NCBI RefSeq assembly: GCF_056746865.1
Contig: NZ_CM163382.1
Reading direction: 5' to 3' (one strand)
DNA: 64,000 nucleotides
Shown: positions 30,001 to 36,000 of the stretch, piece after piece
How positions within the stretch are numbered: the stretch's first letter is position 1
Layout: every line of letters starts with the position of its first letter
Made by a program: the position numbers

Positions 30001-33000
30001 ATCAAGCGCGAAGTCGCTTATCGCCAGCAAATTGGATACCTCGAGAAAGTGAATAATGATTGGCTCGAATCATTGCCTGTACGTGATATGATGGAGTTTG
30101 GTTGGATCCCCAAAACTACAACTCGGGAAAGTAAATTCCAGCACTGCCTATCGTTTTTCGGAATAAATTCCGTCAATGATTTTTTTTATAAAATTCAGTC
30201 AGATGCTCCTTTGGTCGCTTTTCGTAAATCTCTTAATCTGGCAACCGAGCCTATGGCCGATTTGGTGTGGCTGACTAGGGCTGCACAACTTACCTCAAAC
30301 CAAAACTGTGCTGTATGGGATAAAGAGGGGCTGATAGCATTGTTGCCAGAACTGCGCAAAGCTACAAATGAACCCGACATGAGGATTTTTATCCCTTACA
30401 TTCGCGACCTTCTCGCCACTGCTGGAGTTTCTCTCGTTGTGTTGCCAACGCCAAAGGGATGTCGGGCAAGTGGTGCTACCTGCTTTTTTACACCAGATCG
30501 CGCAACCCTAGTCATGAGTTTCCGTTATCTGACCGATGACCATTTTTGGTTTACGCTGTTTCATGAGATTGGGCATCTCATCTTGCATGAAGCTGTCCGA
30601 GTTCGCGTAGAAGGTAAAGATAGTCTTTCGTCGGAAGAGGAAAAGGAAGCAGATAAATTTGCCGTTGATGTTCTTATCCCAGAAGAATACCGGCAGCAAC
30701 TTAGTCGCTATGGTGTCCGGCATTGGAAAGAGATCATCCGGTTAGCTAGGAAAATGGGGGTATCCAAAGGGATCGTACTGGGATATTTGCAGCATGAAGG
30801 TAATATACCTTTTTCTCACCTTAATCGGTTTAAAGTGAGATTCCGTAAAGAAGATATCGTCTGATATCAGCCGCCGAAATAGACATAACGGTCAGGTGAT
30901 TTCTGCCAGTTGCACAACGCATCTTCAATAACCTGCATTCTCAAGTAGGGTGCAGGAATAATTGCCGCAAGGTCAGCTAGTTTTTCATTCAATACGTCTA
31001 TTGTGTCACCAGCAGTCCGGCTATTGCTGAAAAGTAGCCGGCTTCCTTGAAGGGGCCCGGTTGCTCCATTCAGAAAAGCATGACCCGGCTCTACATCCAG
31101 AAGTCCCGTTTTCTTGAGCATAGTTAGGTAATCAAATTTTGCGGTTCGTCCAAATGAGATCACGGCATTTAGCCCTGAATACAATAGTTCGAATAAAGAT
31201 TCTGGTGAAGATGAAAAGCTCTTGGCCTCTGCAAACCTAGCCTCATGACTGTGTGTAGCACCAATGAATCCGATGTAAGAGCGAAAAACCGCAGGTATTG
31301 AACGACGAGAGTGATATTTCTTCGTTTCATATTTCCGATGGTTACCATATTGTCTTAGGCTACTGTTAGCTGTCAACTCATCAGAGACGCTGGCGAACCA
31401 TTGTTCAAAAGCAGCAAAGTCATCAGTTATCGTATCCCATGTCCACGTTTGTGTACCGAGTCCACTGTATATATCTCGACACAAAATCCAGCCGGTTTTG
31501 TTACTCTTGCCGAAATGTGTGGCAAGGAAAACCAGCCAGCAGGCTTCATCGTAATTGTTGTCACGAAGATAAAGGCAGGCAGCGCGGAGAGGATCAAAAA
31601 CATCAGAATTCGGCTCTTTTCGTAACGGAGTCATATAATCGGTCCGTAATGCAAGAGTTTCCACATAGCGTATACGACGTATACTGTCGATAATCTGACA
31701 GGCTAAAACATCAAAGCAGGCAGGAGAACTTAGGCCATTTAGGTTGTGTTCATTGCGGCTAAAATTTTGCAAATTACTAACCAGCTGACTGATTTGATTA
31801 TGTCTTTTCATTGTAGTCTTCCTTCAAAAATAAACCGATATTCCTGATTTTTCATTGCAGCCAACTCTTGGAAGGCTAGTCCTTTGTGGTTGGGTGTATG
31901 TGAACGTAACAAAAAGTGGATTTTTAATATACGCAATAAATCCTTCCAGTAGTCATTCAAGGAAGTAGTGTCAATATCAAATTCCTTATTCTCTCGAAGA
32001 GCTTTTTCTGCCTCAAGCAGGGGTAAGATATCATCTAAGGAATGCATTTCAGGCATCGATCCCATGACTGGTAGGGTGCTCATGAACCCCTCTTTCTGAA
32101 GAGCCTTCACTTTTTCTAAATCATTTTTATAGAGATGTAGGCTGGATACAAAGTGATGATAGTGACCCAATTCGCATCCTATCAAGCGGGCAACTAATTC
32201 CTGTAGCATCGTGAACGCAAATACATCATGAGGCAGCCCCATAAAGGCATCGTTAGAACGCATACAAACAAATAGATGCAGCTCTTCACATCTGACAATA
32301 AACTGCATAGATATTGTACAAGGAATATCTACGTATTCTCGCTGTTCAGTTTTTGAGGGCACCAAGTCTGAGGCATCGAAAAGCTGTATTACTGCACGTC
32401 TGGTAGGTTTTTTCTCCTGCAAAAGGTTGATAACATTTTTTAGCTGATTATATAAACCACGCATATTAAACAACCGTGGCCCGTAACCACCATGTATTTT
32501 CCCATCTGACTCAGCGGATTCAGCGTAACGTGGTATGAAGTGTTTTATAAACTCAAGATCGTTCTGAGCTGAGAGATACCACAGAAATTCACCTAAGCAA
32601 CTAATTAGTTTTCCTCGGGATTCTGTTCTACTTATTCTTCGGCGGGGGTCGGTAAGGACAAGATAGGCACCAAGAATCTCTAGAGTTGATCCTTTTGTAG
32701 GATCGTTACTGAGTCCATCCGCTAGGATAGCTTGATGAACATCGTTTATCAGATCGTCAACACACTCAGCCGTTACCAAAAGAGTCATTTTCTACCTTTT
32801 CCTGTATGGTAGTAACTAATCATTACCACCTGTATGGCATATAGTCAATATAGTATCAATATCAACATGGTTCACAGGGTAAGTAAGACTTGATCTTACC
32901 CAGCAATAGTGGACACGCGGCTAAGTGAGTAAACTCTCAGTCAGAGGTGACTCACATGACAAAAACAGTATCAACCAGTAAAAACCCCGTAAACAGCATT

Positions 33001-36000
33001 CGCCTGAATTTCTCAGTGAAGCCCTGAAACTTGCTGAACGCATCGGTGTTGCTGCCGCAGCCCGTGAACTCAGCCTGTATGAATCACAGCTCTATGCGTG
33101 GCGCAGCAAACTGCAGCAACAAATGAGTTCGTCAGAGCGTGAAAGTGAACTGGCCGCTGAAAATGCCTGCCTGAAGCGGCAACTGGCGGAGCAGGCAGAG
33201 GAACTGGCTATCCTCCAAAAGGCCGCGACATACTTTGCGAATCGTCTGAAATGAAGTATGTCTTTATTGAAAAACATCAGGCTGAGTTCAGCATCAAAGC
33301 AATGTGCCGCGTGCTCCGGGTGGCCCGCAGCGGCTGGTATACGTGGTGTCAGCGGCGGACAAGGATAAGCACGCGTCAGCAGTTCCGCCAACACTGCGAC
33401 AGCGTTGTCCTCGCGGCTTTTACCCGGTCAAAACAGCGTTACGGTGCCCCACGCCTGACGGATGAACTGCGTGCTCAGGGTTACCCCTTTAACGTAAAAA
33501 CCGTGGCGGCAAGCCTGCGCCGTCAGGGACTGAGGGCAAAGGCCTCCCGGAAGTTCAGCCCGGTCAGCTACCGCGCACACGGCCTGCCTGTGTCAGAAAA
33601 TCTGTTGGAGCAGGATTTTTACGCCAGTGGCCCGAACCAGAAGTGGGCAGGAGACATCACGTACTTACGTACAGATGAAGGCTGGCTGTATCTGGCAGTG
33701 GTCATTGACCTGTGGTCACGTGCCGTTATTGGCTGGTCAATGTCGCCACGCATGACGGCGCAACTGGCCTGCGATGCCCTGCAGATGGCGCTGTGGCGGC
33801 GTAAGAGGCCCCGGAACGTTATCGTTCACACGGACCGTGGAGGCCAGTACTGTTCAGCAGATTATCAGGCGCAACTGAAGCGGCATAATCTGCGTGGAAG
33901 TATGAGCGCAAAAGGTTGCTGCTACGATAATGCCTGCGTGGAAAGCTTCTTTCATTCGCTGAAAGTGGAATGTATCCATGGAGAACACTTTATCAGCCGG
34001 GAAATAATGCGGGCAACGGTGTTTAATTATATCGAATGTGATTACAATCGGTGGCGGCGGCACAGTTGGTGTGGCGGCCTCAGTCCGGAACAATTTGAAA
34101 ACAAGAACCTCGCTTAGGCCTGTGTCCATATTACGTGGGTAGGATCACATAACCTGAAATGGCACTAATGGCCAGAGCTTACTAATACATAATCCCTACA
34201 GGATGTAGCCACCAGTTTTGTTCATCCGGTATTCTGATTTGGTAACATGCTCCAGAAAGGAAGAAATATGTACTGCAATGAATTAAAAGAATTTGCGCAA
34301 GAGCAGGAACAAAAACTTATCAGTGCGCTTGCTGATACCAGAGAGCACCCGTCCCCCGATGGTGAAACAAGAAGCCGGGATAATTATCAACGGGATTACG
34401 CGCGTATTCTGTATTCATCATCATTTCGCAGGCTGCAGGGAAAGATGCAACTTTTTGAAATTGATCCTGAAAAATTCAACAGAAACAGATTAACGCACAG
34501 TCTTGAGGTTGCTCAGATCGCCCGAAGTATCGCGTCAGACCTCAAACTGATTAACCCGGTGGTGGTTGAACTGGCAGCGCTGGCGCATGACATCGGAAAT
34601 CCTCCTTTCGGTCATTCCGGTGAAAAACTGCTTAATGAACTGTCTGAAGAAATCGGCGGCTATGAAGGTAATGCACAGGCGCTACGTATCCTGAGAAAAC
34701 TGGAGAAGAAATTTTCATACTGCAACGGATTAAATCTGACTCACCGTAGTTTACTTTCGGTTGTTAAGTATCCCATCCCCCGCGCTGCAGCTACTGCCGG
34801 CAAGTTCATTTATGATGATGATTACTATTTTTACATTAACCTGCTTGCTGAAAATCAGCTCGATCTGAATCCCGGAGAGAAAACGATTGATGCGCAGATA
34901 ATGGATCTCGCGGATGAGATTGCCTACGCCGCGCATGACCTGGAAGATGCCCTTAGCAGGAACATGGTCACGATTGAAGATATTGAATATGAGTTTCAGA
35001 TTTCTGACGAATTCCGGGGAGCGAGGGAACAGTTCAGGGAAATCGTTACTCAGTCGAGAAACACCGCTTTTCAGGCTAACTTACTGAAAACCTCAGAAGA
35101 ATTTGCCATCATATTCCGCAAGGAGTTAACTTCAAATATTGTCAATCGCCTCGTTGCAGATATTTCTGTAGTAACGAACCTGAATGGTTTTCAGGAACTG
35201 GGGTTCGGGAAACTGAATGCGTTATCCGAAGGACTCAAAAAACTTCTCTTTAAAGTCATCATGCGAAAACGTAATATCCTCACCTATGAGTTCAGGGGAA
35301 ATAAAATAATCAGGGATTTATATGACTTTTACAATGAAGGAGAGAATTATAAATTTCTGCCTCCTGAACTTAAATTCACCTTACCCCAACCAGATTCCTG
35401 TATATTTGAAATCAGCAAAAAACGAGCAGTGGTTGACTATATTTCAGGTATGATGGATACATTTGCAGTCAAGGAATGGGAAACTCACTGTCTGAAGTAA
35501 CACTGCCGATTACCAGAGGCGCATATTTTCCCGTTATGGTTATTGCGCCTTTATTCCGTTTCGGTGACAGGTTATTTTAAATATTCTGGAAATGCGTTGA
35601 TGGGCAAGAACAATTACCCTGAAAATAAATACAGGAAATGGTTTTCCACAGCAATAACATATCTTATTACAGGTGGTTTGTGCTGGTATATGTTGTGGGC
35701 ATCCGCTATATCTCATTATACTGTTTTACAAAATACGGTACCTGAATGGACAACATATTTTTGCACCGGTATAATCACCGGATCTCTTTCTTTTATTTAT
35801 GCATTTTATATCCGCACCTTTAACAGAACATTAAAGTCTTTATTAAATGCATTCACGGGGGGATTTTGTCTTGGATTTATACTGAGTCCTGATGAATCCC
35901 CTAATGATTTTGATAAAAATCATTAGGGGATTCATCAGTGCTTGACCTTGTTTAAAAGCTGTAATATCGCAATTTACTAACTCAATATCTAAATCCATTG

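Follow-up and report, generated by a model that had tools for sequence, protein, structure and literature searches.

A defective IS3 copy between a ThyA-like operon and a dGTPase gene in Escherichia coli is probably the joint of an IS3-associated deletion

Introduction

An insertion sequence (IS) that lies between two divergent genes readily suggests an insertion into a shared promoter, and a lone genome without the IS would seem to confirm such a history. This arrangement is found in a 64,000-nt stretch of contig NZ_CM163382.1 (assembly GCF_056746865.1; hereafter the window, to which all coordinates refer unless a locus is named), where a defective copy of IS3 separates a ThyA-like operon from a divergent gene encoding an HD-domain dGTPase. 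The first-pass annotation of the window took the element to split a 222-bp divergent regulatory region common to the two modules, and gave a recombination joint as a fallback. The question raised by the locus is therefore whether IS3 entered an old intergenic region or whether the two genes became neighbors only through the element. Comparison with a collection of 5426 complete E. coli genomes argues for the second possibility: the flanks of IS3 are separate in IS3-free genomes, the only apparent empty site is an excision scar, and the element is probably the surviving joint of an IS3-associated deletion.

Results

The two flanks of IS3 run into unrelated DNA in IS3-free genomes

The ThyA module is present in only one IS3-free genome, that of SCU-152. 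The flank there follows the window collinearly as far as ...AAGACT(TGA), reading AGGTAAGTAAGACT and continuing as TGACGTTCTT..., and then enters hsdS; the whole junction is ...CACAAGGTAAGTAAGACTTGACGTTCTT..., and the continuation past AAGACT is unique in the collection. As SCU-152 has the 14 bp that directly adjoin the left end of IS3 in the window and has no IS3, these 14 bp are native ThyA-side DNA. For the dGTPase side, the gene is present in 44 genomes that are free of IS3; these are collinear with the window rightward from (A)CATAACC and have a cdiB remnant upstream, and in the IS3-free genomes of the A24 type the 120-bp dGTPase-side flank is the same sequence as in the window bar three single-nucleotide polymorphisms (SNPs). 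The homology to the window ends in the IS3-free genomes no more than 3 nt from each IS3 end, and since both flanks run into unrelated DNA there, they were not contiguous before IS3.

A search of the collection for the two flanks joined to each other returned a single match, EC2, in which the genes are adjacent without IS3 across a 206-bp spacer. The site reads ATGGTTCACATAACC in EC2 and ATGGTTCACA-GGGTAAGTAAGACT-(IS3)-CATAACC in the window. EC2 was considered as the ancestral empty site and rejected, as it has lost the native 14 bp, carries derived dGTPase mutations and bears a TCACA excision scar. The mutations, a 1-nt dGTPase deletion and two SNPs, are common to EC2 and the IS3-bearing FORC 064. 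In the latter, TCACA stands just left of GGG and IS3 and occurs again across the right IS end and its flank, and removing the DNA between the two copies yields the exact EC2 sequence. The dGTPase frameshift of EC2 (locus L001, 12705-13933) and FORC 064 (locus L002, 12131-13362) is located at the window equivalent of 35417, and EC2 has an additional 3-nt deletion at the equivalent of 34812-34814. The frameshift is lineage-specific, since B1-56, with a junction of the FORC 064 type, has an intact dGTPase gene.

The comparison was extended to 39 loci from other phyla that encode relatives of the ThyA-like protein at 40-79% identity, and in none of them is a dGTPase homologue found within 8 kb of the ThyA-like cassette. 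The ThyA and dGTPase modules are thus normally unlinked, and their adjacency in E. coli is always accompanied by IS3 or its scar. Normal unlinkage of the two loci was what the first-pass annotation itself had named as speaking against a split regulatory region, and that part of its interpretation has to be given up; the recombination joint that it offered as a fallback is supported by the comparison of junctions.

Junctions are nested on both sides of the element

The right junction IS3-CATAACC is found in 279 genomes and the left junction ThyA-AAGACT-IS3 in approximately 230, with both present in at least 185. The right junction is combined with at least four different left flanks: ThyA-AAGACT in the window, W2-5 and E166; ThyA-CACAGGG, which is 11 bp shorter, in FORC 064 and B1-56; in strain 6817, a position 3.6 kb to the left that falls within the MazG-like gene; and DNA beside IS1 and the fec operon in MRE162 and CUVET21. 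Conversely, strain 1409 has the left junction ThyA-AAGACT-IS3 and the A5 allele of the element (see below) with another right flank, homologous to the orphan cdiA-CT that comes after hsdR in SCU-152.

The DNA that may once have separated the two modules can be outlined from two genomes. The order in SCU-152 is selC - integrase - MazG-like - XRE/M78 - aGPT - ThyA - hsdS-hsdM-hsdR - orphan cdiA-CT - cdiI - cdiA - cdiB, and that in A24 is cdiI - cdiA' - cdiB' - approximately 280 bp - dGTPase. The cdi segments of the two are 96-99% identical and alike in orientation, and the composite reads ThyA-hsdSMR-cdi-dGTPase in the orientation of the window, with approximately 20.9 kb between the breakpoints. 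On this composite map the right flank of strain 1409 appears as a shorter deletion, in the direction that the map predicts. On both sides, one IS3 end stays constant while its partners vary in a nested series, which is the signature of IS-adjacent deletion.

The IS3 copy is complete at its ends and disabled in orfA

The position, length and strand of the element in the first-pass annotation stand, with fitting ends and domains, and so do its distances to the two start codons (Table 1). The copy has the same ends, orfA/orfB layout, A4G motif and rve DDE domain as IS3 of E. coli (IS3 family, IS3 group, 1258 bp) and differs from it in being 1 nt shorter, in a 157-bp divergent patch of orfA and in the absence of a target duplication. 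The terminal inverted repeats are imperfect, and the tips are TG...CA (TGATC...GATCA); a search of the 64-kb window found no second IS3 copy and no other IS3 end. IS3 target duplications usually have 3-5 bp (PMC10379815). In the arrangement ...AAGACT-IS3-CATAACC... direct repeats of 3, 4 and 5 bp are absent, in agreement with the earlier remark that ACT and CAT are not a clean 3-bp duplication. The missing duplication would follow from an origin as a joint, and bears on the insertion history, not on the identity of the element. At the left end, GGGTAAG in the flank is an exact 7-nt inverted copy of positions 5-11 of the left inverted repeat (CTTACCC; window 32877-32901), so that flank and IS3 end make up a small palindrome, and the element might have inserted beside a target resembling its inverted repeat. 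IS3-free SCU-152 reads TGA at the junction, as does the tip of IS3.

Relative to the canonical 1258-bp copy that FORC 064 carries in this position, the window IS3 has one A fewer and 52 substitutions (approximately 96% overall identity); 44 of these fall in 33089-33203, and 33246-34102 is identical in the alignment. A 321-bp stretch around the divergent patch is approximately 90% identical to elements annotated as ISEc16. The variant orfA stretch is found at 99% identity or more in only approximately 221 records, so that the variant allele is essentially specific to the locus; canonical IS3 matches the stretch at 84.8% in approximately 4200 records.

Translation of orfA as found ends at a stop after 23 codons (MTKTVSTSKNPVNSIRLNFSVKP), and the addition of one A gives a 99-aa OrfA. 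In orfB, Pfam recognizes rve and HTH_21 domains, and the integrase core is matched by PF00665 (5e-28) and PF13333 (5e-22). The A4G slippery motif at 33217 and the overlapping orfA/orfB layout of the IS3 family are present, and an Rfam scan of 32600-34500, for features such as a frameshift pseudoknot, returned nothing at E<=1. Because orfA is broken upstream of A4G, neither OrfA nor the OrfAB fusion can be made, and the copy can presumably move only if another copy provides the transposase.

At least 185 complete E. coli genomes contain the interval 31800-35500 (3.7 kb), which is 100% identical in all matches listed; in the identical genomes RefSeq labels the element 'IS3 family transposase, frameshifted'. 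Copies of the canonical allele at the same site carry A6, and every inspected assembly with the variant allele carries A5. A sequencing error in the A5 run was considered and rejected, given the identical run across variant-allele assemblies and 100%-identical genomes, and the orfA frameshift seen in the first pass is thus real and inherited across genomes. Altogether the IS3 at this site occurs as two alleles plus mosaics, with a canonical-left/variant-right hybrid in strain 6817, and homologous exchange between IS3 copies has also taken place here. A more decayed variant IS3 of 1255 bp is seen in MRE162 (locus L006, 6746-8000) and CUVET21-PYO5 (locus L010, 5747-7001), where the orfA start ATG is changed to AAG, the homopolymer region is altered and the context is fec-IS1-IS3-dGTPase. 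In strain I3 (NZ_CP195969.1), identical in other respects, the 3.7-kb stretch matches in two pieces approximately 1.3 kb apart with an IS1203-family transposase annotated under the match, and another IS has probably inserted into this small region.

Table 1 Features at and around the IS3 copy, in window coordinates.
Feature	Position	Strand	Remarks
aGPT-Pplase3 / amino acid:DNA transferase-like (ADDT-family) gene	30867-31811	-	operon gene 2; PF18746 4.8e-90, PF18724 9e-59
ThyA-like gene	31808-32788	-	operon gene 1; divergent thymidylate synthase family; PF00303 5e-25
102-bp ThyA-side flank	32789-32890	-	ThyA-like ATG at 32788
14 bp directly left of IS3	32877-32890	+	GGGTAAGTAAGACT; native ThyA-side DNA; missing in EC2; FORC 064 retains GGG only
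Defective IS3 copy	32891-34147	+	1257 bp; starts TGATCTTACC, ends GGATCA
Left inverted repeat (IRL)	32891-32929	+	matches reverse complement of right end at 28/39 positions
orfA	32956-33255	+	1-nt deletion in A run 32980-32984 (A5 vs A6)
Divergent patch, orfA 3' half	33089-33245	+	approximately 65% identity to canonical IS3
orfB	33251-34117	+	open, 288 aa, integrase-core DDE domain
Right inverted repeat (IRR)	34109-34147	+	transposase-direction outward end, towards dGTPase gene
120-bp dGTPase-side flank	34148-34267	+	dGTPase ATG at 34268; RefSeq start identical
HD-domain dGTPase gene, anti-phage type	34268-35500	+	intact; PADLOC dGTPase 2e-109

Promoters and expression of the flanking genes

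On the ThyA side, a promoter scan points to TTGACT (32848-32843) and AATGAT (32824-32819), separated by an 18-nt spacer and located 30 nt upstream of the start codon. Comparison with SCU-152 and Enterobacter chuandaensis shows ATATTGACT and CAGGTGGTAATGATT as conserved blocks in an otherwise diverged spacer, and these appear to be the phylogenetic footprint of the predicted ThyA core promoter. This promoter is retained in the window, with 42 bp from the -35 element to the IS end, and a loss would thus be possible only in elements further upstream. In the 120-bp dGTPase flank, a sigma-70 promoter scan gave weak candidates only, namely an extended -10-like TGgTAACAT ending at 34248. The IS3 promoters P3L and P3R both point in the transposase direction, and P3R faces outward (PMC8860574). 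In the window this direction leads into the dGTPase gene, and a scan of the DNA between found no terminator-like site, which makes read-in transcription of the dGTPase gene from IS3 plausible. The three flanking open reading frames (ORFs) are intact in the window-type genomes and the ThyA promoter footprint is kept, which argues against the simple silencing considered in the first pass; altered upstream control or read-in would be more likely.

Flanking genes and the surrounding island

The ThyA-like and aGPT-Pplase3 genes overlap by 4 bp. The ThyA-like protein scores far under every NCBIfam thymidylate-synthase equivalog cut-off, these sub-cut-off matches being its only NCBIfam hits; NCBIfam has none for the aGPT protein, and PADLOC none for either of the two. 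The dGTPase passes NCBIfam TIGR01353 with 316 bits (cut-off 152) and reaches 284 bits with the antiphage_dGTPase model, short of the cut-off of 400. It belongs to the HD phosphohydrolases, in the dGTP triphosphohydrolase subfamily, fits the PADLOC defence model for anti-phage dGTPases of the type of Tal et al., and would be predicted to protect against phage by depleting dGTP.

The wider island is rich in defence genes and contains type I restriction-modification genes, a MazG-like gene, an XRE/M78 regulator, remnants of pap genes and a resistance block, ISCR2-floR-tet(A)-strAB-sul2. The dGTPase gene itself lies on a 1.75-kb islet (34148-35892), and the homology to the MRE162 island ends at 35892. 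A second junction is found there: beyond approximately 35892/35893 follow a papA fragment, papB- and papI-like genes and the resistance block. The left edge of the ThyA cassette also has an IS remnant, an ISL3-family transposase fragment at 28207-28749 (window 27875-28911).

The ThyA-like cassette outside E. coli

In 36 of the 39 loci from other phyla the ThyA-like gene is followed by aGPT-Pplase3. The cassette consists of these two genes and a convergent XRE-HTH/M78 peptidase gene (window 29459-32788) and is conserved in the same number of loci (36/39), from Proteobacteria, Bacteroidota, Actinomycetota, Chloroflexota, Verrucomicrobiota and Myxococcota; a short ORF of 108 aa is frequently located upstream. 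The XRE/M78 protein matches PADLOC PD-Lambda-2_B at 9e-30, and PADLOC 2.0 is without a model for the two enzymes. About one third of the non-E. coli loci have an extra gene of approximately 265 aa between ThyA-like and aGPT-Pplase3 (locus L013, 8902-9880; locus L018, 2952-3790; locus L022, 8813-9850; and approximately nine others). Its product has the conserved motifs GLNPSNREF, CHLDL(I/V)PYAT and GYNHN(I/L)QSSFGVT and no Pfam match at E<=0.1, and the gene is absent from the E. coli cassette.

The joint presence of ThyA-family and aGPT-Pplase/ADDT-family enzymes resembles the thymidine hypermodification pathway of phages. That pathway, however, combines a dUMP hydroxymethylase, a 5-hydroxymethyldeoxyuridine (5-hmdU) DNA kinase and an aGPT-Pplase, and as the cassette (28911-32890) is without a gene for the kinase, it is not filed under this pathway. 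In the DefensePredictor paper (PMC13092281) aGPT-Pplase and MazG are predicted, unvalidated defence domains and thymidylate synthase is a newly validated one. The cassette of ThyA-like, aGPT-Pplase3 and XRE/M78 genes is probably of greater interest than IS3 itself.

Discussion

The IS3 copy between the ThyA-like operon and the dGTPase gene is probably the surviving, transposition-dead joint of an IS3-associated deletion; it would not have entered an intergenic region that already existed. In the history that we propose, IS3 would have inserted approximately 100 bp upstream of the ThyA-like operon, in an island of the order ThyA cassette - hsdSMR - orphan cdiA-CT - cdiI-cdiA-cdiB - dGTPase. The DNA at its right end would then have been lost in one or more steps, approximately 21 kb in total, which would set IRR 120 bp upstream of the dGTPase gene and eliminate one of the two target repeats. 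Additional deletions, in other lineages, would have started from the left end and taken 11 bp, 3.6 kb as far as the MazG-like gene, or the entire cassette, and in one strain the IS would have been excised between the TCACA microhomologies. Such a history predicts a parent junction of the form ...AAGACT-IS3-ACTTGACGTTCTT..., and a crossover between two IS3 copies would predict ...GGCAACAT-IS3-CATAACC... in addition. The elements of the proposed history have precedents: IS3 rapidly makes adjacent deletions and is excised with the help of IEE, the IS-excision enhancer (PMC8860574), and adjacent deletion or inter-IS recombination is the general explanation for an IS that is not flanked by a target duplication, with deletions that enlarge stepwise (PMC11708052). 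The order of the events, and a transposase-mediated adjacent deletion rather than a crossover between IS3 copies as their cause, we infer from the compared sequences.

Such a crossover, RecA-dependent and between two direct IS3 copies, one on the ThyA side and one on the dGTPase side, would likewise delete the intervening DNA and leave a hybrid IS3, and we regard it as possible, if less probable. The window IS3 is indeed a mosaic, variant to the left of approximately 33246 and identical to the canonical copy to the right, and the opposite hybrid of strain 6817 has the same right junction; moreover, the median E. coli genome has three IS3 places, and recombination between IS copies has been documented to leave them without target duplications (PMC11708052). 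However, a separate IS3 insertion would be required for each alternative flank, at five or more sites, and the searches on the two sides yielded no parent with a single, duplication-flanked IS3. The variant allele occurs essentially only at this locus, and nesting from both ends is what stepwise adjacent deletion would produce. Adjacent deletion is preferred because it needs one insertion, not five or more. The reciprocal product, the SCU-152 continuation beside another IS3, is absent from the window and from all other genomes searched.

A simple insertion into an existing ThyA-dGTPase intergenic region of 206-222 bp, with a 3-bp duplication that later decayed by point mutation, is hardly credible. 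Its support is EC2, with the genes adjacent across 206 bp and no IS3, but EC2 is without 14 bp that are native by the evidence of SCU-152 and has its dGTPase mutations in common with FORC 064. The difference between ACT and CAT would need two to three substitutions, yet the surrounding 3.7 kb is 100% identical in the matches listed; both flanks enter unrelated DNA in IS3-free genomes, and linkage of the dGTPase gene to the cassette is never seen in the 39 loci of other phyla. It also seems improbable that IS3 was captured without duplication at a DNA break or a ready-made junction during a large deletion of which it was not the cause. Duplication-free IS copies at the centers of deletions have been reported (PMC11708052), and the target duplication is missing here as well. 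In that work, however, capture is only proposed, for IS5 and IS481, and the IS3-family cases (IS150, in the long-term evolution experiment) are all insertions followed by adjacent deletion; at the present locus several further deletions begin exactly at either IS3 end, which points to an end-directed activity.

Several observations weigh against an IS3-adjacent deletion as well. A parent of the form ThyA-IS3-ACTTGACG...hsdS was not found in the collection, nor did a search with a constructed junction find IS3 as a simple insertion in the dGTPase context of the A24 type. The ancestral order combines the maps of two genomes, and no single genome has ThyA, cdi and dGTPase so ordered. In the window-type genomes a homologous hsdSMR block adjoins the opposite side of the cassette, beyond the ISL3-family fragment, so that the order of blocks is swapped (hsdSMR-ISL3'-cassette in the window type, cassette-hsdSMR in SCU-152) and at least one further rearrangement must belong to the history of the island. 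The two IS3 alleles and their mosaics show homologous exchange between copies. Finally, the A5 frameshift is common to copies with different right flanks; if it came first, the deletions needed a transposase from another copy or homologous recombination.

The closest known counterpart is the laboratory insertion-deletion-excision (IDE) series with IS3 and IEE of Kanai, Tsuru and Furusawa (Nucleic Acids Research 2022, PMC8860574), in which IS3 insertion is followed by an adjacent deletion that closes the gap between two genes and by excision with short microhomology. The window type, the 1409, 6817 and FORC 064 types, and EC2 would be natural counterparts of these stages. The genes here are, however, divergent and form no operon, and the stages were pieced together from several natural strains instead of being observed in a single lineage. 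Similarly, the IS cases of PMC11708052 are alike in having duplication-free copies, because the deletion began at an earlier IS, and in growing stepwise, and they differ in that another element, natural isolates and an inferred time order are involved here. A more ambitious reading would take the strains as a natural stepwise record of IS3 insertion-deletion-excision, so far a laboratory phenomenon only, that assembled a compact nucleotide-targeting defence cluster with the dGTPase gene under the outward promoter of IS3, and that spread to approximately 185-280 genomes through selection for linkage or expression and not by hitch-hiking; we consider this unlikely.

A duplication-free IS at a deletion joint, with later excision, is a well-known phenomenon, and the locus holds neither a new element nor a new mechanism; the finding, though real, is an ordinary one, and RefSeq already annotates the IS3 copy. 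Its value lies in a corrected history of the locus and in a warning about a misleading empty site. For the annotation of defence islands, the dGTPase should be regarded as a system distinct from the ThyA-like/aGPT cassette, the two being joined by chance, and the locus offers a tidy natural example of IS3-driven gene clustering, in which the IS would itself have created the adjacency of the two genes.

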